Shown here: positions 21,781-62,897 of the stretch, one piece after another
How positions within the stretch are numbered: position 1 is the first letter of the stretch
Layout of the letters: each line of letters begins with the position of its first letter
Sequence record: PZ445450.1
Direction: 5' to 3' (one strand)
Length of the DNA: 64,000 bases
From: a phage
The notes under the pieces: model-generated
Databases searched by the model: none
Seen by the model: the letters and a program-made list of their open reading frames with translations, nothing else
Told to the model about the DNA's origin: nothing
Program-made: the position numbers and the translations under genes

Positions 21781-21806
21781 GGGGCTTAAAGGCCCCTTTC
21801 TTTTTG
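21781..21806 (+). terminator. rho-independent terminator
   Basis: ggggc-ttaaag-gcccc followed by tttctttttg. Confidence 0.7.
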
Positions 21807-22421
21807 TCTGCTCTTCTCCTACCATAAACGGCCCTACCTGGCAAGTGGAATAATTGACTAGCCATCAATCCCACATACTGTACAAATATACATGGAAAAT
21901 AACTATTGCATAATCTTTCATTGTGCGGTAGCAGGGCCATTTTTACCCGTTTTCTCTCCCAAAAGTGCACGTAATGCCGCTATTGCACAAATTTTAACCT
22001 GATGCACATATCCAATATCTTGTCAACAACTAAAAATCTTTATAAGTCATACACTTATACAGCATCGAAAGCGTGTTCTACGTGAAAAATCGAGTATAAC
22101 TATAGCCGCCAGATCTCAGAATTCACGTACGCACGCCATTCTATAGCCTGCAAAGTATTTATTCCAACCACAGAATAACGGAATAGTCAATACCTGCATA
22201 AAATAATTATTCGTGTAAACTGCATAACATAAATCAGCTCAGGTGTCAACATTTTTCGTAAACAGTCCGAAATTATCACGATGAGTTATCATAAACAGAG
22301 AAATCTTTAGTCGTCTAATGTTTACTGTACATTACTATACTGACTGGAATCATTAGATGACTAAGAAAAAGATAAGAAATAATTAATAATGTAATTGTTT
22401 TATCTGTAACAATAAGGCAAC

Positions 22422-22700
22422 CATGCAAACGAATGTCATGGCGCGACGGAGTCGCGACATAATATAAAAGCAGTAACCATCACCCCCGTGATAGTTTGTC
22501 TGCAATCTATTATTCAGATCATAGTTGCCTTGTATTTAGTTAATCATGACATAACAAGCAAGGCAACTATAGCTCTGATAATAGTTGCCCTGCTTTTATA
22601 TTATGTCATAGATTGTTAGCTTGTTAACTGTCAGCCTGTTGGCTGTTAGCTTGTCAATTATTAAATTGCTAATCTTTATCATGCAAACGAATGTCATGGC
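22422..22700. repeat. Composite repeat locus: 21-bp direct repeats flanking nested inverted repeats
   Basis: catgcaaacgaatgtcatggc at 22422-22442 and 22680-22700; 18-bp inverted repeat gacataatataaaagcag (22456-22473) / ctgcttttatattatgtc (22580-22597); inner palindromes cgcgac/gtcgcg and atagttgccttg/caaggcaactat. Confidence 0.8.
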
Positions 22701-22711
22701 TTATCATCTCT

Positions 22712-22767
22712 GTGTAAACAGTTTGGGCGTAAACTATTCAGGCGTAAACAGTCTATGCGTAAACAGT
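22712..22767. repeat. Four tandem iterons with 15-bp period (G[CT]GTAAAC[AT][AG]T)
   Basis: gtgtaaacagt, gcgtaaactat, gcgtaaacagt, gcgtaaacagt at 15-bp spacing; tgttagcttgt/tgtcagcctgt repeats sit just upstream and tgtgtc repeats downstream. Confidence 0.8.
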
Positions 22768-23141
22768 GAGATATGGAATAGTAACAGCCGTTATTGTGTC
22801 ATATTGTGTGACATTGTGTCCGGTGTCTGGTGTCCAGTGTGTCAGACAAGTTTTTCTCCTCTTTGTCAAGTGCTGCATGAAAAATTTACAAACTGGTATG
22901 GTAGCATTTTTGCGGCCCTGTTTACATTCAGTTGTGTATGTATAACCCTTGTTGTGTGGGCGTTTAGACGTCTAGACGGTTGGAAGTCTGCAGGTCAATA
23001 TCTAATCTATCGGCTGCTAACTATATCCCACACAAATAGTAAGAAATATAATTGTTATGTGCGTAAACAGTAACTCATGTTATCAATCCCTGTATGTATC
23101 GCCAGTGGTGCGCATAATGGGTATTATGTTAAATTGCCCGT

Positions 23142-23178
23142 AATGATAATGGTTCTCACAATGATAGGTATTCTCATT
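23142..23178. promoter_or_regulatory. Fur-box-like palindromic motifs
   Basis: aatgataatggttctcacaatgataggtattctcatt; same motif family as 10773 and 10903. Confidence 0.35.
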
Positions 23179-23420
23179 CATCCACACAAAATAGGTTGCA
23201 AATGTTGTGCCACTGTGTGAACGGCCTGGCCTATTAATTTCCCTCACTGCCTCGATATTTGAGAATTGTTATAAGAATGAGAAGTATTCCCATTTCGTCC
23301 GCCTGGCAGCACTCCTGTAGTCCTACAAGGACTCTAGCTGAAAGCTAGACCCTTCGGGCCTCCCTGCAGGTCAGGTCAAAATCGTGGTAGAATTGGGCTT
23401 ATTCAGATATTTCTGGCCGA

Positions 23421-23961
23421 CTCTTCAGGTCTGTGTGGGAAAAGCCAACCTCTCCGGCGGGGCAGGGGGAGGTCAATTAAAAAATTTACGTGGTGTATGA
23501 AGCGCTCTTCAGGTAAGGCAGGTATTATGGGATGAAACCCTCTTCAGGCAATGATATTTGTGGGTGTGATATTTGCTGGAAAGCCAGATATGACGGGACT
23601 CCCGGCGGGGATGGGGCAGTACAGACAGGGAAAATATGGGGATGTAGTTGGGTAAATTGATCAGACAGGTAGAGTATGGAATATGTTACAAGTATGTTAA
23701 ATATGGAGGGTGAATATCTGTAGGATTTGTGTGTAAAATCAAAGACTTAAGCGGTGTTGTGGTATTTTCTATAAATAATTCAAGTTTAATAGGTAATATT
23801 TGTCTCTATCCACTCTGTGTGGTAAACAGATTCAGATGATATTGGTTTGCAAGTGTATACATAATATACAAATTAAAGATACAAGAAACCCCCCTCCCCC
23901 TTCGGCTACCATTCACCTTTTCCTCTGACTGGTACTTAAACACTTATTCAGACTCTTCAGG
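23421..23961. repeat. Dispersed direct repeats of CTCTTCAGG with degenerate ~110-bp units
   Basis: CTCTTCAGG at 23421, 23505, 23540 and 23953; ctccggcggggcaggggg and ctcccggcggggatgggg recur; no supported ORF. Confidence 0.7.
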
Positions 23962-24311
23962 TTATCACCCATATATCATATGGCAGTGACTGGTGTCCTC
24001 CGGCCCCTCTTTCGTCACCCGTCCGCTTCGCCATGCTAATGCCATAGCCAAATGTTCGGTTGTTCACCCTGTTCACTCAGGTGTATCTCCATACCCCTTC
24101 AAACCGAAGAGAACAGAAAACCCGAATTACTCGGTAAAAGAAAAGAGAAGAACTTAATTTTATCATGATAGGCAAGAATGTCAAGGCATGACTGCTCACT
24201 AAACAAGCAAACAGTCATGTGTGGAAGGTAAGTGATTGTGGTGGTAGGAAATTTAGTTGAAAGATGTGTTATAGGTGCTCCCAGCACTTTAGCCGGGTAG
24301 CTAATTGTGTG

Positions 24312-52039: not shown

Positions 52040-52519
52040 TTAATCCAGTACTGTGCCTCCGGCTTTTCGGAAGACGTCCAGCATCTTCTCTATGTTTTCT
52101 ACACGCTGATCATACAGTTTACCAGCCCCCGGTGGTGGTGGGAAACTTGCCCAACGGCTACGGCATTTATAGATAGCTGAACGGATCCTTCCTTCATAAA
52201 TGTCATCAAGGGCTTTACATTCGCGGATCAACTGTTTTGCTATGGCATCCTGACTTGCCGGACCAAAATCTCTTAAGCCAAGCTGCTTCATGTAATGCTT
52301 AGCGTATTTCTCCAGAATTTGGTATCTGCCAAATGCTGAAGAGGTAAGGCCTGGTCTTAATTTGACATAAATACCGGGATGCCTGCTGAGATCCTCTATG
52401 TATTTTCCACCAACAAGGATGTGGTACGAAGCATCTTCGCCACCATACCTGTCAGTACCTTCTGAATGTGAAATCATCGAAAAAAATGCTCTCAATTGTA
52501 CATTTTTATCTAGCTTCAT
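52040..52519 (-). CDS. endolysin, lambda R-like lytic transglycosylase
   Basis: LRAFFSMISHSEGTD...ILVGG...GRYQIL...KQLGL...GGTV closely parallels lambda R (AFLDMLAWSEGTD...VIVGG...GRYQLL...KQLGL). Confidence 0.9.
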   Translation of the reverse strand: MKLDKNVQLRAFFSMISHSEGTDRYGGEDASYHILVGGKYIEDLSRHPGIYVKLRPGLTSSAFGRYQILEKYAKHYMKQLGLRDFGPASQDAIAKQLIRECKALDDIYEGRIRSAIYKCRSRWASFPPPPGAGKLYDQRVENIEKMLDVFRKAGGTVLD

Positions 52520-53232
52520 TTAAACCTCCGATTAAACCACTCTTCCAACGAATCATCATGTTTTGCATATTCTGCGGATTTTCTGACGCATACAGCATCC
52601 CACCACTCCGTGTATTGCCCCAAATGATACCTTTTGCTGTTTTCAGCAATCTGAACTTGCCACTTGTCAGTATCGTGTCTCCATTTAACACCTGTACACC
52701 CAGATGTGTTATTAAGTTTTAGTATTTTGCCTTTATAAGTACCTGAAACTAGCTGTTTTCTTGCCTCTACAGCCTCATCTTTGGTCTTAAAGTACCCAGC
52801 AAACCTATCTCCTTCGAGGGTGTTATATACTGCATACCATAAACCACATTTCTTATAAACGCCTAAGTTACCGTGCGGGTTATTTTTCGGGAGTAAATTA
52901 TTTCTTATGCGGTCCTTGTTGTTATCACTGTAGGTGCCCATAGAAAGATTTTCTATATTATCCTGGCCTTTTATATCATTTAAATGCCTGACAAGAAAGT
53001 TTTTTGTTAAAGAGTTATAAAACATGTCGTAAATAATTCTATGACGCTTCTTATCACCACCTTTATGAGAGTTGATTATAACATACCCTTGTGCATCATT
53101 ACAACCAGCTTTTGTGCCAGCTTTTATGAAGAGTTGATTTTTACCTCGGCCTCTATAATGATTCTTTGTCCAAACTAGCTCCCCATCTTTGTACCAAAAT
53201 GCAAAATTATCATTGAAGAAGAAATTAATCAT
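52516..53232 (-). CDS. HNH-AP2 homing endonuclease (free-standing)
   Basis: HNH core HRIIYDMF...VRHLNDIKGQDNIENLSMGTYSDNN plus two AP2-like repeats (GVYKK..GLWYAV...F.TKDEA; TGVKWRHDTDKWQVQI...LGQYTEWWDA). Confidence 0.75.
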   Translation of the reverse strand: MINFFFNDNFAFWYKDGELVWTKNHYRGRGKNQLFIKAGTKAGCNDAQGYVIINSHKGGDKKRHRIIYDMFYNSLTKNFLVRHLNDIKGQDNIENLSMGTYSDNNKDRIRNNLLPKNNPHGNLGVYKKCGLWYAVYNTLEGDRFAGYFKTKDEAVEARKQLVSGTYKGKILKLNNTSGCTGVKWRHDTDKWQVQIAENSKRYHLGQYTEWWDAVCVRKSAEYAKHDDSLEEWFNRRFK

Positions 53233-53385: not shown

Positions 53386-54669
53386 TCATTCCAGCACCTC
53401 CCAAGTGTCTGGGTCAACATTTCGGACGCAGATACCGACAGGGAATTGGTAGTTGTTGTCTTCTGTCCTTGATTGATATTTGAAGGTGACAAACTTGCCG
53501 ATCATTTCCTGCATCCTGTCATAGCTACGCTCCTCGTGCGTGCCTTTCATCTTCATTTTAACAACTATACCTTCCTTGTCAACGCAGATAAGAACACCTT
53601 CATCATTCTTATCTTTCTCAACGTCAATAACTTTCACCTCAGCATCGTTGAACTTTTTCCATTTCAATGCTTCAGATGTTCGCTGACCATATTCATATTT
53701 ACCACAGAAGTTACGCATGATAGTACCTTCATATCCTTCGGACATGAATACACCAACAGATTCTTCGCAATGATCAACTGTGTACGCAAGCTCTGCGTCA
53801 ACAACCTTGATATGGTCAAGCATCAGGGTGGTAATGGTATCTTCTGCATCCATAAGATCCTTGCATCGTCCAGATTCTGTTTCCGGATCCCACCATACCT
53901 TGTCACTAGGAATGTCGAAAATATGATACTCTAAGTCATAGCTACAGTACCCTCCGTAACGCAAATCATCACGAACAGGCTCAACATCAACAGGAATATC
54001 TACCTTATTGAAGTTTTTGTATGTTGATAAGCCTGCCTTAATTGCGGCATGACGGCGTTTTTTATCTGCCTCGTAGTCTTTATCGATCTCGGCCTGAATC
54101 TCTTCCTGTGTGCGCCAACGTTTAGCAAGAGACACTATTTTCTGCAGAGGCAGACCATGAATATAGATCTCTCCGTCGAGCTGTTTAATCCCGGTGGTGA
54201 AGTGGAAAGAACGAAGTTGCTCCAGAAGCTTTCCTTGAATAGGGTAGGACTTATTACCACGGGAAATAAATTTAGGCTCACCGTTTTGGAAAACAACCAG
54301 TAGACGAAGGCCATCTAACTTACGCAAGATCCAGCAGGGTAATTTAAGTGCCTTTCCACGCTTCAGGTAGTCATGCACCAGCATGGGTAAAAGGTCAACA
54401 CCCTGCTCGCAATCTTCCATATTTTCAACATACCCCAGACGGACTTGTTTTTCCCACTTACTGATCGCTTCCAGCTCAGCCTGTTGCTCAGCTGTAGTTT
54501 CATTGGCACGGCCCACGTTCTTAGGTGTGCAGATCGTCTCTTTGTATTGCAGTTTACCATCAAGCTTGCCAAACTCTACGATAACCTTATCACCATCCGT
54601 GAATACTTTCCACTGTTGGTAGCTGCCATCTTTGTTCAGTGCGTACAGTGTTGTTTTGATCTGATGCAT
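53386..54669 (-). CDS. DNA ligase (nucleotidyltransferase superfamily)
   Basis: Motif I KLDGLR, motif IV-like EGYEGTIMRN, motif V-like KMKMKG. Confidence 0.7.
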   Translation of the reverse strand: MHQIKTTLYALNKDGSYQQWKVFTDGDKVIVEFGKLDGKLQYKETICTPKNVGRANETTAEQQAELEAISKWEKQVRLGYVENMEDCEQGVDLLPMLVHDYLKRGKALKLPCWILRKLDGLRLLVVFQNGEPKFISRGNKSYPIQGKLLEQLRSFHFTTGIKQLDGEIYIHGLPLQKIVSLAKRWRTQEEIQAEIDKDYEADKKRRHAAIKAGLSTYKNFNKVDIPVDVEPVRDDLRYGGYCSYDLEYHIFDIPSDKVWWDPETESGRCKDLMDAEDTITTLMLDHIKVVDAELAYTVDHCEESVGVFMSEGYEGTIMRNFCGKYEYGQRTSEALKWKKFNDAEVKVIDVEKDKNDEGVLICVDKEGIVVKMKMKGTHEERSYDRMQEMIGKFVTFKYQSRTEDNNYQFPVGICVRNVDPDTWEVLE

Positions 54670-54938
54670 TACTCGGCCTCTTCCTTAAAAATTTTAAACA
54701 TCTCTTCTTTGCTCATTACCAACCAGTCTCCCATAAAGTCAACTAGCCAATCTCCCTGGTACAAGACAAGGTTACCAAAAGGCTCGACAAGCTCACACAT
54801 GCGACGAAGATCTCTGGTCCGAACAGGTGACGATGTAAACACACCTGTATCAATCCACCGTTGCAGATCAGATACTGATGAAGAGCTTCCGTCAAACTGA
54901 TGTGCTTCTACAGGTTTAGCAAGATTAAATAACGGCAT
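54669..54938 (-). CDS. hypothetical protein
   Basis: 89-aa ORF. Confidence 0.45.
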   Translation of the reverse strand: MPLFNLAKPVEAHQFDGSSSSVSDLQRWIDTGVFTSSPVRTRDLRRMCELVEPFGNLVLYQGDWLVDFMGDWLVMSKEEMFKIFKEEAE

Positions 54939-55233
54939 TGCAGTCCTCCTTCTGTAGTAGGTCTTTTATAGGATAAACAAGTAAGTGTGGGTCGTAATAA
55001 CGTATAGTCCTATTCTGCCACACTATGAACTTTATTACAACCAAATTTACAATATCTTTATCACCATGTAGCCCAACACACACATTTGTCCATATTTTGT
55101 GGTTGAAGACCTTGCTATCGATGTAGATTTTAGTGTCAAACTTATCTTCCATTCTACCAATAAGTTTGATCAGCTCCTTCATCTGGTCGCCAAACACAGC
55201 ATCTTTTTCAAGATCTCTGGAATGCTTGTACAT
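54925..55233 (-). CDS. hypothetical protein
   Basis: 102-aa ORF. Confidence 0.45.
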   Translation of the reverse strand: MYKHSRDLEKDAVFGDQMKELIKLIGRMEDKFDTKIYIDSKVFNHKIWTNVCVGLHGDKDIVNLVVIKFIVWQNRTIRYYDPHLLVYPIKDLLQKEDCNAVI

Positions 55234-55295
55234 AACTGACTACCTCACTGCATACTTTCCATAATAAGTAAAGCCGGGTAATCCCGGCTATGTTG

Positions 55296-56009
55296 TTAAA
55301 TATACTCTGTTACATCCTTGAAGCTCGAAGGCTTCATAATCTTACCTTTACTGTCAAGGAATATAATAACTTTATTGCCGTTGTAGAACTCCTCTTTAGC
55401 AACGAAACCTTCGTAGCGACCACCAAAACGACGCTCAAGATCTTTAATCTCCAACTCGATGAGTTGTTCAGCAGGCATATCTGCACTGGCACCGTGTGAA
55501 TGCCGTAGATGGTTGATCCGTGCAAACTTACTGTCATTAGATTTTAGAACCTTCCGCATCATCCCACACACATCCCCGCTAAGCTGGAACAGTAAAGCTG
55601 TTGATAACTCCGCTAGTCGGTAAGCTGACGCTCTTTGCTTGGATGTGTTTTTCGCAGCGATCAGTGTATCATAGAACTCACCGATCTTGAACTTAAGACC
55701 TCGCGGATTATCAAACAGGTTTGACCACTTTTCGTGGTTATCATTAACAAGATAAGCTGCATAACTTGTGACAACGTGAAGATCGCAGGCCTCTTTTAGC
55801 AGGTGATCTCCACCATCACCTTTCTCCAGCTCTTCCAAAACCTCATTGAACTCTTCCTCAATGAAGCTAAGCTGTAATTCGAATGGTGTGTATGATTTTT
55901 TCACTTTAGCTGCCACACGGTTCCAGTTTTCCACCCAGTTGGCAGACCAAAGGTAGTTTTCAGGCTGGGACAGTTTTTCCAGGTTGTCGATCAGTTTAGT
56001 ATTCAGCAT
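55296..56009 (-). CDS. MazG-like nucleotide pyrophosphohydrolase (putative)
   Basis: FIEEEFNEVLEELEKGDGGDHLLKEACDLHVV resembles the MazG EExxE...D metal-binding helix pair. Confidence 0.5.
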   Translation of the reverse strand: MLNTKLIDNLEKLSQPENYLWSANWVENWNRVAAKVKKSYTPFELQLSFIEEEFNEVLEELEKGDGGDHLLKEACDLHVVTSYAAYLVNDNHEKWSNLFDNPRGLKFKIGEFYDTLIAAKNTSKQRASAYRLAELSTALLFQLSGDVCGMMRKVLKSNDSKFARINHLRHSHGASADMPAEQLIELEIKDLERRFGGRYEGFVAKEEFYNGNKVIIFLDSKGKIMKPSSFKDVTEYI

Positions 56010-56022
56010 TAAAGGTCTCCTT

Positions 56023-56784
56023 TTAAAGTTCCATAAAGTTTTCTACAGTTTCAATAAATGCTTTATCAGAGAAAGCGTCAACAGCACCGTTAAACCATAC
56101 AGGGATCCCGCGATCCTCATATTGATAAAGGTCGCTACGTGAAATGCCACTTCCATCTGCACTCTGCGAATCATACTTGTTTACAATCAGCAGTTTTGTG
56201 CCTTTACAAGTAGCAGGAAACAATTCCCAGTTAAAATTAATAACTGTGTTAGAACAACCTACCAGGATCACCATATCATTGCTTGTGAGAGATGTCAACA
56301 GGTCATACATGTCTGTATACTTAGGAGCAACCTCACCGAAGAACACTACATTGGGCTTAACCCAGGTATACTTGCCTGTATCTACCTCCGTGTATCCGAT
56401 ATTTTTAATTACATCATTACCTTCAGCATCTTCGTAGGTGATTTCAGGCAAATACCCGTGGACATGTAAAATATCTTCATGTTTTACACCAGCACGCTCC
56501 AGCAAATCATCTACATTGGTAGTAAGGTTGATCACACGACCAGACCAGCGGGAATACCACTCAGCGATCCGAAGATGTGCAAGGTTAGGATCAACACTGC
56601 CCAGAGCTACACGACGTGCATTGTAAAAGTCATGCACCTTATAGTAGTTCTTGGCAAAGGTGTGGATGTTGCACACCTCATCGATGCTGAAATTCTCCCA
56701 CATTGCAGTGCTACCAGATCGGAAAGTGGGAATACCAGATTCAGCGCTCAAACCAGCACCGGAGATAATAATCAGTCGTCGCAT
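56023..56784 (-). CDS. Sir2 (sirtuin) family NAD-dependent protein
   Basis: GAGLSAESGIPTFRSG, TTNVDDLLERAG, HVHGYL, PNVVFFGE sirtuin motifs; no obvious CxxC zinc ribbon. Confidence 0.8.
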   Translation of the reverse strand: MRRLIIISGAGLSAESGIPTFRSGSTAMWENFSIDEVCNIHTFAKNYYKVHDFYNARRVALGSVDPNLAHLRIAEWYSRWSGRVINLTTNVDDLLERAGVKHEDILHVHGYLPEITYEDAEGNDVIKNIGYTEVDTGKYTWVKPNVVFFGEVAPKYTDMYDLLTSLTSNDMVILVGCSNTVINFNWELFPATCKGTKLLIVNKYDSQSADGSGISRSDLYQYEDRGIPVWFNGAVDAFSDKAFIETVENFMEL

Positions 56785-56792
56785 AAGTGTCC

Positions 56793-57143
56793 TCAGTAGA
56801 TGTTTTGTTTAATCTCTATTCCAAACTTCTTGAATGAGTCAGCAGCAAGCATAAATTTACGAGCTGCCGATGGATTAGAAGTATGCACGAAAATAATCAC
56901 GTTGTCAATAAGTGGTGGCTTTCCGAATACAAGTTTCTCCTCTAGCGCAGAGAAGCAGTCGTACCCTTCAAGCACTTCACCTAGATCATTGTCAAAATGC
57001 CACTCAGAAACGCTCCTGTAGAGCTTTCTATTATCGTTAATAAAATCCATGAACTCAGAAGAGTTCTTCAGCCAAAGAGCATCTTGGATTCCGTAATTTG
57101 ACGGATCTCTCAAGTCATCTAGCCACACAATCAACTTCTTCAT
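56793..57143 (-). CDS. hypothetical protein
   Basis: Internal ATG (MKKLIVWLDD) forms ATGA overlap with the RNA ligase stop. Confidence 0.45.
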   Translation of the reverse strand: MKKLIVWLDDLRDPSNYGIQDALWLKNSSEFMDFINDNRKLYRSVSEWHFDNDLGEVLEGYDCFSALEEKLVFGKPPLIDNVIIFVHTSNPSAARKFMLAADSFKKFGIEIKQNIY

Positions 57144-58075
57144 TGCATATAGTCCTCGTTGTGAAAATAGCAATCAAGTATCTCACGGCGTTCCTGCTCC
57201 AGGAGGCAGTTCCACACATCTTCTGTGTAATTGCTACGAATGAAGTTTACCATGCCATAAAACTCTTCGTCAATACGTTTAAAGATATCATCATCCCAAA
57301 TCTTCCAAGCTTTACCCCTCATTACGGCCTTCCGTGCCAAATAGTATGGAGACTTGATCTTCAGCTGCAGGTCATAAGGGTAGTAAGGCTTACGGATCAT
57401 ATACCCTTCGCCCCTTGTTTCTGCAGCTAATTCTTTTGCATAGCTGAACGGGATTTCACGCACAGTGTGAGGACGTTTTGCACCAAGGTATTTGGCAATT
57501 CCATCTAAAGCTGCTTCTGGTAGCATTATTCCAGAATCATTATATCTGCAACCTATCAAATATGCGCCATGGTCTTCTTGAACAATATGCGGATCTGAAG
57601 GGTGACAAATTTCAAACATGAATGTCATGTTTTCATTGCCCATAACCTTCTTGATAAGATCTAAATTACCACATTGCTCTTGGATGGTTTCCTTTGCAAG
57701 GTTACAATATGGAGAATCAAGAGACCCGGTTGTTGAGAACAATAGGTCACCTTTATGAGATGATACCACACCAAGGAATCCGTTCTTTTTCTCTACCGCA
57801 GTCACAAGCTTATTGTCAGGCAGGTTGGTGGAGTTTTCTCCCAAGTTAAACACTTTTGTGAAGGGCCATGCCACAACATTTCCTTCATTACCTACAACAA
57901 TGCCTCGGCACTCCAGTAAACGAGGGGACAAATGCCATAAATTGTTGTAAAATACTTTTCTAGCATATTTATAGATCTTTAACCCGAGATCTGGGTAATA
58001 CCTACTGGTTACAAGACCTTTGTCAACTAGGTCGTCTGCATTAAAATACTTCATCATACGTTCCTCATTTGTCAT
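57140..58075 (-). CDS. RNA ligase-like nucleotidyltransferase (Rnl family, putative)
   Basis: Motif I EKKNGF, motif IV EGYMIRK, motif V LKIKSPYY; divergent from kinase/phosphoesterase genes. Confidence 0.6.
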   Translation of the reverse strand: MTNEERMMKYFNADDLVDKGLVTSRYYPDLGLKIYKYARKVFYNNLWHLSPRLLECRGIVVGNEGNVVAWPFTKVFNLGENSTNLPDNKLVTAVEKKNGFLGVVSSHKGDLLFSTTGSLDSPYCNLAKETIQEQCGNLDLIKKVMGNENMTFMFEICHPSDPHIVQEDHGAYLIGCRYNDSGIMLPEAALDGIAKYLGAKRPHTVREIPFSYAKELAAETRGEGYMIRKPYYPYDLQLKIKSPYYLARKAVMRGKAWKIWDDDIFKRIDEEFYGMVNFIRSNYTEDVWNCLLEQERREILDCYFHNEDYMQ

Positions 58076-58118
58076 TTTGTCAGTCTATCCTGTCACACAA
58101 ATAACCTAGTGTCAACAC

Positions 58119-58147
58119 TTGAAATTAACAAAACAGTTAGATATACT
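58119..58147 (+). promoter_or_regulatory. sigma70-like promoter (TTGAAA-N17-TATACT) in divergent intergenic region
   Basis: -35 58119-58124, -10 58142-58147. Confidence 0.5.
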
Positions 58148-58175
58148 ATCGTTGAAATTAAAACGGAGGGTCACT

Positions 58176-58586
58176 ATGTCTAAAATGCTATATATCGTGC
58201 GTGGTCTACCAGGGTCTGGCAAATCAACACTGGCAAATGCGCTATCTTTAGAGGGTCTGTATCCACATTTTGAGAAAGACATGTTCTGGTATGACGATGA
58301 CGGCAATTACAACTGGGATGCAAGTAAAGTAACACTCGCAGCGAAATGGTGCAAAGATAACGTAGAAGATATGATGCGTATGGGATACGACCGTATCGTG
58401 GTAAGTAATACGTTTACAAAAGAAAAACATGTGCAGGAATATGTTGACATGGCAATCAGTCATGGGTATAGTTATACCGTGATCGTGGTTGAAAACCGCC
58501 ACGGTAATAAAAGCATTCATGATGTTCCAGACAAGGTTGTGGATCGTATGGAACGCCAGCTTAAAAACTGCATTAAACTTAAATGA
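58176..58586 (+). CDS. polynucleotide kinase-like P-loop kinase
   Basis: ggaggg RBS; MLYIVRGLPGSGKSTLA Walker A at extreme N-terminus, as in Pnk kinase domains. Confidence 0.65.
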   Translation: MSKMLYIVRGLPGSGKSTLANALSLEGLYPHFEKDMFWYDDDGNYNWDASKVTLAAKWCKDNVEDMMRMGYDRIVVSNTFTKEKHVQEYVDMAISHGYSYTVIVVENRHGNKSIHDVPDKVVDRMERQLKNCIKLK

Positions 58587-58593
58587 GGAATGT

Positions 58594-59148
58594 ATGAAAT
58601 ACTTTGTAACAAGCGACACACACTTTCTCCACCAGCGGGTCATGGAGTTTGATTCATGTCAAAAACACAGATCTCAGTATGATCACAATCTTGACAGTAT
58701 GAATGCGGGAATCATCGCCGAATGGAACTCTGTTGTGTCACCTGCAGACACTGTGTTCCACTTGGGAGATATTGCGTGCACTAATGATAAGAATATCAAC
58801 AACTTACTTCCAGATATTCTAAATATGTTGAACGGACATATTATTCTTGTTCGTGGCAACCATGACACAAGGACGACTGTCAGAATTATGAAAGAGTTCG
58901 GTCATGAGGTTGTAGATTATTACGAGCTTCGCCACAACAAGAATTTGATCTGTATGAGCCATTACCAATTTGCAAAGTGGAACAGAAAGCCTCACGGATC
59001 AGTCCAACTGTTCGGTCATGCTCACGGAACCACACAACAGTTGTTTGGCAGGCAGCTTGATGTCGGTTGGGATGTGTGGGGGAGACTCTTACCATTAGAA
59101 GAGGCATACCGTATTGCAATGAGTTTTGCTATTGACAGCGGGGAGTAA
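58594..59148 (+). CDS. calcineurin-like metallophosphoesterase
   Basis: SDTHF, GDI, VRGNHD, GHAH motifs; gagg RBS before internal ATG. Confidence 0.7.
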   Translation: MKYFVTSDTHFLHQRVMEFDSCQKHRSQYDHNLDSMNAGIIAEWNSVVSPADTVFHLGDIACTNDKNINNLLPDILNMLNGHIILVRGNHDTRTTVRIMKEFGHEVVDYYELRHNKNLICMSHYQFAKWNRKPHGSVQLFGHAHGTTQQLFGRQLDVGWDVWGRLLPLEEAYRIAMSFAIDSGE

Positions 59149-62085: not shown

Positions 62086-62160
62086 GCCCTGTTAGCTTAG
62101 TGGATAAAGCAGCGGCCTTCTAAGCCGTTGACACTGGTTCGAGTCCAGTACGGGGTGCCA
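62086..62160 (+). tRNA. tRNA-Arg (anticodon UCU)
   Basis: Cloverleaf folded by hand: acceptor gccctgt/acggggt (one G-U), anticodon loop CUUCUAA, T-loop TTCGAGT, CCA encoded. Confidence 0.8.
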
Positions 62161-62164
62161 AATT

Positions 62165-62251
62165 GGGGAGTTATCCCGTAGAGGTAGCGGTGTAGACTGT
62201 AAATCTATTGTCATTGCGACTCGGGTGGTTCGACTCCACCACTCCCCACCA
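62165..62251 (+). tRNA. tRNA-Tyr (anticodon GUA), class II
   Basis: Acceptor ggggagt/actcccc, anticodon loop CUGUAAA, long variable arm, T-loop TTCGACT, CCA encoded. Confidence 0.75.
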
Positions 62252-62365
62252 AATTTATATTTTTAAATGCATAAATCATACAGATAATGACATTGATATT
62301 TATCGTCGTTTATACTAGTCACTAACTGCTCGAAAATCAGTGTCATTATCAGTGTAATTTATAAA

Positions 62366-62456
62366 GGAGGGTAGGGAGCAATGGTGCTCAAGCGGTCTTG
62401 AAAACCGTCCCGTTGAGGATGACTCGATGATGGTTCGATTCCATTACTCTCCGCCA
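62366..62456 (+). tRNA. tRNA-Ser (anticodon UGA), class II
   Basis: Acceptor ggagggt/actctcc, anticodon loop CUUGAAA, long variable arm, T-loop TTCGATT, CCA encoded. Confidence 0.75.
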
Positions 62457-62554
62457 CATTGTTGACCTTGTAATTAAGCGAAAGCCGGAAGCAGAACCGG
62501 ATTATCAAATGTTACAGTCGTCATCGCCGACTAGCCACATGGTCAACATATTGC

Positions 62555-62653
62555 GCTAGGTAAGCCCTTTGGCAAGGGCGAGGATTTTTAATCCTGAAAA
62601 TAGACGAGGTAGTCGTTGAATACATAGGTGGTTCGATTCCATCACCTAGCACC
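62555..62653 (+). tRNA. aberrant tRNA-like gene (candidate Lys-UUU-like anticodon loop; ~30-nt insertion before T-arm)
   Basis: Acceptor gctaggt/acctagc, D-arm gccc-tttggcaa-gggc, T-arm ggtgg-ttcgatt-ccatc. Anticodon region aggatttttaatcct gives UUUUUAA loop only with a 4-bp stem; ~30 nt lie between it and the T-arm; 3' CC only. Confidence 0.45.
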
Positions 62654-62657
62654 TTTT

Positions 62658-62733
62658 GCTGATGTAGCACAATTGGCAGTGCAATTGATTTGTAATCAAT
62701 AGGTTGCAGGTTCAAGTCCTGCCATCAGCACCA
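62658..62733 (+). tRNA. tRNA-Thr (anticodon UGU)
   Basis: Acceptor gctgatg/catcagc, D-stem gcac/gtgc, anticodon loop UUUGUAA, T-loop TTCAAGT, CCA encoded. Confidence 0.8.
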
Positions 62734-62734
62734 T

Positions 62735-62809
62735 GGCCCTGTAGCTGGAAGGTTCAAGCAAGCGACTCATAATCGCCAGACGGTGGTTCAATTCCACCCA
62801 GGGCCACCA
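62735..62809 (+). tRNA. tRNA-Met (anticodon CAU; elongator Met or Ile2 lysidine type)
   Basis: Acceptor ggccctg/cagggcc with G1-C72, anticodon loop CUCAUAA, T-loop TTCAATT, CCA encoded. Confidence 0.7.
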
Positions 62810-62820
62810 AATAATAAATA

Positions 62821-62897
62821 CTCCGCGTAGCTCAGCTTGGTAGAGCGCCTGATTTGGGATCAGGAGGTCGAGTGTTCGAATCACTCCGTGGAGACCA
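62821..62897 (+). tRNA. tRNA-Pro (anticodon UGG)
   Basis: C1-G72 acceptor typical of tRNA-Pro, anticodon loop UUUGGGA, T-loop TTCGAAT, CCA encoded. Confidence 0.8.

Follow-up and report, generated by a model that had tools for sequence, protein, structure and literature searches.

The closest described counterpart of the genes considered here is the type-2 sirtuin-centred RNA-repair neighbourhood of phages that Iyer, Burroughs, Anantharaman and Aravind defined in 2022 (Viruses 14:1977, PMC9503650), with Escherichia phage V5 and Proteus phage Mydo as prototypes. In it, a sirtuin gene is accompanied by genes for a T4-like RNA ligase, a cREC (cyclic-phosphate processing receiver domain) protein, a nucleotide kinase, MazG and, in some cases, a calcineurin-like phosphoesterase. 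These authors proposed that the phage sirtuin clade strips 2'-phosphates from RNA using NAD+, like KptA/Tpt1, while accessory enzymes either open cyclic phosphates or deal with ADP-ribose cyclic phosphate; in the jumbo-phage version of the neighbourhood the place of MazG is taken by Nudix, whose gene is often fused to that of cREC (PMC9503650). The reference reaction, NAD+-dependent removal of an RNA 2'-phosphate, follows the Tpt1 mechanism given in PMC11417386. A different role had been suggested earlier for the homologue of Vibrio phages, namely that of a CobB-like deacetylase in which salt bridges take the place of the zinc ligands (Skliros et al. 2016, PMC5107563). Exactly the arrangement of Iyer et al. 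is present in the 64,000-nucleotide stretch of phage DNA analysed here (sequence record PZ445450.1; hereafter the window), where a sirtuin gene and a MazG-like gene together occupy positions 55296-56784.

The source phage is a Vequintavirus, that is, an rV5-like E. coli myophage closely related to phage V5. Its segment 54600-58200 is 99.8% identical to that of Escherichia phage MaxTheCat (Bas57), and at least 80% of this segment is present in 117 of 120 related records. The sirtuin, RNA ligase, cREC, kinase, MazG-like and calcineurin-like phosphoesterase genes all lie within 55296-59148 and we see no structural difference from the published V5/Mydo-type neighbourhood, so that the feature is already known, both through genome annotation and through a specific comparative-genomics description. 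Our reading of it, which we hold tentatively (probability of about 0.42), is that the two adjacent genes encode co-transcribed yet functionally separable enzymes of an rV5-type repair cluster, the sirtuin acting in tRNA repair and the MazG-like protein as a nucleotide pyrophosphohydrolase. The substrates and pathways proposed below are inferences; what we observed are the families and folds of the proteins, the conservation of their motifs, and a gene order that varies among lineages. The features of the locus are as follows.

56023-56784, minus strand: sirtuin, 253 aa, predicted zinc-less, CobB/SIRT5-like, of a phage-specific clade (PF02146, E 6.9e-28; phrog_2162, 1.5e-108)
55296-56009, minus strand: MazG-superfamily all-alpha NTP (nucleoside triphosphate) pyrophosphohydrolase, 237 aa, with a C-terminal beta-hairpin GRY...GKIMKP (phrog_671, 1.9e-21)
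55272-55289, minus strand: terminator-like GC-rich hairpin with a T-rich tail, AGCCGGGattaCCCGGCTttacttatta (consensus scan, pattern match only)
56793-57143, minus strand: cREC protein, 116 aa counted from the ATG start annotated in MaxTheCat (PF20274, E 6.4e-14; phrog_1479, 1e-33)
57140-58075, minus strand: T4 Rnl1-type RNA ligase, 311 aa (PF09511, E 1.1e-14; phrog_562, 7e-66)
58176-58586, plus strand: P-loop polynucleotide-kinase-like protein, 136 aa (PF13671 AAA_33, 9e-11; phrog_2071; phrog_505 'polynucleotide kinase')
58594-59148, plus strand: calcineurin-like metallophosphoesterase, 184 aa (PF12850, PF00149; phrog_547, 1.4e-52)
53386-54669, minus strand: ATP-dependent DNA ligase, 427 aa (PF01068, PF14743, phrog_114)
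54669-55233, minus strand: two small conserved open reading frames (ORFs), of 102 aa at 54925-55233 and 89 aa at 54669-54938 (phrog_7684, phrog_14585)

The interval 55296-56784 consists of exactly two minus-strand ORFs, separated by a gap of 13 nt that contains an AAGGAG ribosome-binding site ahead of the MazG-like gene. The RNA ligase, cREC, sirtuin and MazG-like genes follow one another in this order on the minus strand, with gaps of 8-13 nt or overlaps, and the terminator-like hairpin lies immediately 3' of the MazG-like stop codon, where it possibly marks the end of a ligase-cREC-sirtuin-MazG transcription unit. Beyond it come the two small ORFs, which accompany the MazG-like and DNA ligase genes in related phages as well, and then the DNA ligase gene itself. 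The kinase gene, annotated as polynucleotide kinase in MaxTheCat, and the metallophosphoesterase gene (58176-59148) run divergently from this ligase operon. The RNA ligase gene is thus indeed close to the pair, as the earlier note on this DNA had stated, two genes upstream of its sirtuin end.

That note, made without database searches, had described a Sir2-family protein with the core NAD-binding and catalytic motifs but no obvious zinc ribbon, and on both counts our analyses bear it out. In Pfam, the protein scores 98.2 bits for SIR2 (PF02146), whose gathering score is 24, and the match covers positions 1-178 of the 180 in the profile. Among solved proteins, those nearest to it by sequence are E. 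coli CobB (30% identity, E 4e-27) and SIRT5, and its AlphaFold model (pLDDT, predicted local distance difference test, of 89) retrieved CobB, Sir2Af1 and human SIRT5 as top Foldseek matches (E ~1e-17 for CobB/SIRT5); these relatives are deacylases of the class III type. Its motifs include GAGLSAESGIPTFR, TTNVDD, KPNVVFFGE and the catalytic H109-G110. Across 29 aligned clade members, residues G9-A10-G11, S16-G17, F21-R22, N90, D92 and H109-G110 are invariant and align with CobB, as is the KP.V.FF.E loop; the class III Y-x-x-R motif, which binds acidic acyl groups, is equally invariant (F53-Y54-N-x-R57-R58) and the same as FYNARR in CobB. With CobB and SIRT5 the phage protein shares the Rossmann core, the GAGxSxxSGIxxFR motif, the N and D of TxNxD, the catalytic HG, the xPxVVxFGE loop and Y-x-x-R.

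Differences are found in the small domain and the substrate cleft. Since no cysteine occurs between H109 and K143 in the window protein or in any of its 28 homologues, the zinc ribbon is lost across the whole phage sirtuin clade; the zinc cysteines of CobB line up with other residues or with a deletion of seven residues at its CHCC, and the three-stranded sheet of the small domain is still predicted without zinc. Known sirtuins carry a G(T/S)SxxVxP motif in their substrate cleft. The phage clade has G176-C-S178-N179-x-V181-I182-N/D where CobB has GTSGHVYP, turning GTSxxVxP into GCSxxVIN, and the proline is absent throughout. The phage protein further differs from CobB by an extra C-terminal segment and by lacking the basic N-terminal extension of CobB-L, and the clade is uniformly acidic (median isoelectric point 5.1, net charge about -12).

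Among the sirtuin classes, which the earlier note had wished to see separated by profile searches, the protein resembles the CobB/SIRT5-type class III enzymes. It scores far below the NCBIfam CobB equivalog or subfamily cut-offs (122.6 against 243 for NF001753; 104 against 320 for NF040867) and matches no family among the PADLOC defence-system models at E<=0.01, the only Pfam match being canonical SIR2, so that we regard it as a divergent, phage-specific offshoot of canonical class III sirtuins and not as a NADase of the ThsA/DSR type. With no PADLOC match and canonical motifs, we rejected its assignment to the defence-type SIR2 NADases (ThsA, DSR1/2, SIR2-HerA, SIR2-pAgo). Its family and fold matches were all to sirtuins, without any homology to the ART-fold Tpt1.

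The second gene was harder to place. The earlier note had proposed a MazG-like pyrophosphohydrolase, and this assignment stands, with phrog_671 ('nucleotide pyrophosphohydrolase', E 1.9e-21) and conserved motifs behind it. Pfam (E<=0.01), NCBIfam and Protein Data Bank (PDB) sequence searches with the 237-aa protein itself gave no match and a word-indexed homologue search returned only 16 close relatives. These direct searches gave nothing useful, and the family could be delimited only by an exhaustive profile search, which detected 167 relatives at E<=1e-3 among 1.84 billion representative proteins, nearly all of 200-260 aa and matched along their full length. In a set of 60 members, made of 59 of these relatives plus the window protein (itself without a match), PRA-PH (PF01503) was matched by 40 and MazG (PF03819) by 12 at E<=0.01, and the family profile reached HisE (E 0.017) and MazG (E 0.19) in the PDB, at superfamily level only. 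Residues E53, D76, N158, K161, K223 and K226 are invariant in the 60 members, and E52, E56 (at least 90%), R198, Y199 and P227 nearly so. The metal-binding pattern EExxE(12-28)ExxD is present as E52-E53-x-x-E56 and E73-x-x-D76, together with N158-x-x-K161-F, a motif of the NxxKF(P) type, all of them invariant or almost so, and the predicted fold is an all-alpha helical bundle whose best match is to dimeric dUTPases, with no match at the sequence level to the dimeric dUTPase family. The protein looks like an active nucleotide pyrophosphohydrolase. Relative to the all-alpha NTP pyrophosphohydrolases (MazG, HisE/PRA-PH and dimeric dUTPases) it forms a separate family, distinguished by its C-terminal GRY...F-D-x-x-GKIMKP beta-hairpin. 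The dCTPase/dUTPase gp56 of T4 belongs to the same superfamily.

The MazG-like ORF is labelled 'Sir2-like protein' in many Vequintavirus GenBank records and in one UniProt entry, apparently a propagated annotation artefact. In the BFVD structure collection, its fold is matched by A0A481Z0N6 (Foldseek E 1.3e-4, TM score 0.49), a 471-aa protein of Mimivirus LCMiAC01 annotated as thymidine kinase, which may be a kinase-pyrophosphatase fusion hinting at deoxynucleotide metabolism.

The distribution of the two genes across phages separates them. The sirtuin clade was detected by tblastn in 1011 phage records, from Vequintavirinae, T5-like Demerecviridae, Mydovirus, Seunavirus, Stephanstirmvirinae, KVP40-like phages and jumbo phages. 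The MazG-like family was found in 325 records, all of them, among the matches listed, myoviruses of ~130-155 kb. A MazG-like gene lies within 8 kb of the sirtuin at 13 of 55 sirtuin-centred viral loci, and Vequintavirus is the only genus in which the two are immediate neighbours. Loci centred on the MazG-like gene were sought with a subset of 15 family sequences; at 35 such viral loci, a DNA ligase gene is found within 7 kb in 33 cases and a sirtuin gene in 13. The Mydovirus/Seunavirus-type order is metallophosphoesterase, Rnl1, cREC, polynucleotide kinase, Sir2, DNA ligase, small ORF and MazG-like gene, which puts ~3 kb between sirtuin and MazG-like genes, and in Phapecoctavirus 'ukendt' they are ~27 kb apart. 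In two distant lineages, a DNA ligase gene is followed by a small ORF, the MazG-like gene and a 5'-3' exonuclease gene, in this order, with no sirtuin or RNA ligase gene within 7 kb on either side.

T5 offers an independent lineage with the same association between sirtuin and RNA repair. Its sirtuin T5.102 is 57% identical to that of the window. Encoded in the same operon is T5.105, which belongs to the HAD_SAK_2 phosphatases ('Swiss Army Knife RNA repair'; E 4e-20); neither an RNA ligase nor a MazG-like gene occurs near the T5 sirtuin within the 6-8 kb examined. The name 'Sir2' that PHROG gives to T5.105 (phrog_18062; locus L058, 7142-7648) appears to be an annotation artefact. Two paralogous DUF7415 proteins, T5.106 and T5.107 (L058, 7651-8481; E 3e-33 and 3e-30), are encoded 3' of the sirtuin and HAD_SAK_2 genes in this operon and may belong to the same pathway.

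On these neighbourhood counts, the recurrent company of the sirtuin, in unrelated phage lineages, is that of RNA-end-healing phosphoesterases, and the constant partner of the MazG-like gene is the DNA ligase and not the sirtuin. The MazG-like gene also tracks genes of DNA replication. We therefore do not treat the pair as a two-gene module, and an obligate Sir2-MazG unit can be rejected. The linkage between the MazG-like and DNA ligase genes is a point not made in the 2022 description (PMC9503650) and suggests itself as the one addition of our analysis.

For the sirtuin, we favour the published role in RNA repair with moderate confidence, because its context repeats across lineages, because the pocket formed by its histidine and Y-x-x-R suits a phosphate and because the elements of its peptide cleft have diverged. 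The enzyme would spend NAD+ on an anionic group while a cleaved tRNA is repaired. Following KptA/Tpt1 chemistry, an RNA 2'-phosphate would attack C1'' of NAD+ and the 2''-OH of the ADP-ribose would then attack in turn, resolving the intermediate, while healing and sealing of the RNA ends would fall to cREC, the kinase, the metallophosphoesterase and the Rnl1-type ligase. By analogy with Tpt1, the catalytic histidine and the Y-x-x-R anion pocket would suit both a phosphate nucleophile and the ribose 2''-OH step. The likeness extends to gene context, with RNA ligase, kinase and cyclic phosphodiesterase genes (PMC9503650), and stops at the protein itself, which has a fold unrelated to the ART fold of KptA/Tpt1, is acidic and has a predicted activity. 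In its most specific form, this proposal makes the zinc-less sirtuin a sirtuin-fold analogue of Tpt1/KptA that acts on broken tRNA, either by removing 2'-phosphates or by ADP-ribosylating terminal phosphates, with cREC opening the cyclic-phosphate products; we consider this full version rather unlikely.

Like T4, this phage has tRNA genes and encodes an Rnl1-type ligase together with a kinase and a phosphoesterase. In T4, a single fused Pnkp performs the healing of RNA ends and works with Rnl1 against anticodon nucleases. Here, healing would be split over a P-loop kinase and a calcineurin-type phosphoesterase, and cREC, sirtuin and MazG-like genes are added. The tRNA genes of the window lie ~4 kb away from the RNA-repair genes, and their products are plausible substrates of the repair module:

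62086-62897, plus strand: phage tRNA gene cluster, 7 predictions (ARAGORN, Rfam)

For the MazG-like enzyme, two activities can be envisaged. It might clean the pool of (deoxy)nucleoside triphosphates, (d)NTPs, as dUTPases and dCTPases do, or it might cleave the pyrophosphate bond of an adenylate or ADP-ribose by-product. Pool sanitation seems to us most likely and the cleavage of ADP-ribose or adenylate pyrophosphate possible. The former is favoured because of the fold match to dimeric dUTPases, the linkage with DNA ligase and exonuclease genes, the presence of thymidylate synthase and ribonucleotide reductase genes in the phage and the failure to detect a trimeric dUTPase in its genome using a single query (E. 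coli Dut), a search of limited sensitivity.

Several observations weigh against this combined reading. Literature searches on phage sirtuins, whether for RNA repair, T5 or Vequintavirus, turned up no experimental test and no biochemistry of any member. The sirtuin does not adjoin an RNA ligase gene in Stephanstirmvirinae, nor in T5-like phages, over the 6-8 kb examined, and shared ancestry may lie behind part of the linkage, much of which comes from related myoviruses. Tpt1 enzymes are basic, so that an acidic sirtuin is unlike a typical RNA-binding enzyme. E. coli also carries its own KptA, and the 2'-phosphate step may be dispensable, as the kinase, the metallophosphoesterase and Rnl1 could, by analogy with T4 Pnkp/Rnl1, already yield an ordinary 2'-OH junction. 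In sequence and fold the sirtuin comes nearest to genuine protein deacylases, and a plain deacylase would keep the same residues, Y-x-x-R being exactly what a desuccinylase keeps. On the side of the MazG-like protein, the structure model reaches only a moderate pLDDT of 73 (44-60 for the other four models), and the search for a dUTPase was limited to one query.

The alternative that survives best, doubtful as we find it, takes the sirtuin for an ordinary CobB-like NAD+-dependent lysine deacylase (deacetylase or desuccinylase) that remodels the acylation of host or phage proteins. It might, for instance, activate acetyl-CoA synthetase or control the repair enzymes encoded nearby, and its place in the cluster would be incidental or regulatory. 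The CobB, Sir2Af1 and SIRT5 matches, the invariant histidine, NAD pocket and Y-x-x-R, and the zinc-independent sheet predicted for the small domain are all consistent with it, as is the role proposed for the Vibrio phage homologue, and an acidic isoelectric point fits protein modification better than RNA binding. However, the deviations in the substrate cleft, where the zinc ribbon is lost and V-x-P has become V-I-N, extend to the whole clade, the CobB equivalog scores are far under the cut-offs, and the E. coli host already has CobB. An ordinary deacylase would also leave unexplained why RNA-end-processing neighbours recur in unrelated phage lineages.

A second alternative, which we consider unlikely, follows Iyer et al. 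(PMC9503650) in assigning the MazG-like enzyme to the sirtuin pathway, in the role that Nudix has in jumbo phages. In addition to that replacement of one gene by the other, the MazG-like gene stays in the Rnl1-cREC-kinase-metallophosphoesterase cluster in most rV5-related lineages, even where the sirtuin has moved, and the two invariant lysines of its C-terminal hairpin could bind extra phosphates. On the other hand, it persists beside the DNA ligase gene at loci where genes for a sirtuin, cREC and RNA ligase are all missing within 7 kb (L061-L064, L076-L077) and is absent from the T5-like sirtuin neighbourhood. The fold match favours dUTPase-like enzymes, and the possible fusion of the giant-virus fold relative to a thymidine kinase is a weak pointer to deoxynucleotide metabolism.

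The earlier note had proposed that the pair could jointly modulate host NAD+ or alarmone signalling, the sirtuin consuming or sensing NAD+ and MazG-like enzymes hydrolysing nucleotide signals. Spelled out, the sirtuin would be a NADase or ADP-ribosyltransferase and the MazG-like enzyme would act on (p)ppGpp or immune signals. E. coli MazG is linked to (p)ppGpp. Sirtuins do consume NAD+, some classes being ADP-ribosyltransferases or NADases (PMC9503650), and the two genes are adjacent here, probably co-transcribed and translationally close, but this explanation is very improbable, as the adjacency is restricted to one genus and each gene is found without the other nearby in other lineages, the sirtuin has no defence-type SIR2 match and retains the catalytic histidine of transfer-type sirtuins, its neighbours are RNA-end-healing genes, the MazG-like fold is closest to dUTPases with DNA ligase as constant neighbour, and the one cyanophage MazG assayed in vitro was inactive on magic-spot nucleotides, (p)ppGpp (PMC6850273). 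What stands of the proposal is NAD+ consumption by the phage sirtuin, which is still likely, with NAD+ serving as a co-substrate and not in a signalling role.

Some features of the window lie apart from the pair. Within the tRNA cluster, a 99-nt tRNA-like gene (62555-62653, plus strand; Rfam tRNA, 35.5 bits) was given a 4-base anticodon 'atcc' by ARAGORN, without an assigned amino acid, and a 97-nt 'tRNA-Lys' is annotated at apparently the same position in MaxTheCat. A tRNA-Ser(tga) predicted by ARAGORN at 62366-62456 is unannotated in MaxTheCat and was not recovered by Rfam. Between the endolysin and DNA ligase genes, a 238-aa ORF (52516-53232, minus strand) encodes an HNH homing endonuclease (PF13392/phrog_99), at a position where MaxTheCat shows just a 124-bp gap. 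The adjacent endolysin is 66% identical to that of MaxTheCat, the flanking genes being 98-100% identical, as would be expected if a mobile element had inserted here or a module had been swapped locally. Lastly, ~2.5 kb at ~21800-24300, at the junction of the plus-strand and minus-strand gene blocks, is poor in ORFs (one TTG-initiated ORF of 150 aa), coincides with the turning point of the GC skew and the lowest GC content (0.394) and contains a tandem repeat (15 nt x 3.6, 22714-22767). Its apparent counterpart in MaxTheCat (90051-92584) has no annotated gene, and the stretch could be an origin or else non-coding.

The locus is thus annotated and conserved in many phages, and a computational interpretation of it exists in the literature; as the Tpt1-like role has been in print as a prediction since 2022, only its demonstration would be new. 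If the prediction is true, the sirtuin would be a second, unrelated fold beside Tpt1 for NAD+-dependent RNA 2'-phosphate chemistry, and the first sirtuin shown to act on a nucleic acid. A step of tRNA repair that consumes NAD+ would then exist in such common phages as T5 and rV5, with a bearing on how they escape anticodon nucleases and on how well they withstand immune systems that deplete NAD+, and phages would have a new line of counter-defence against tRNA-cleaving immunity.

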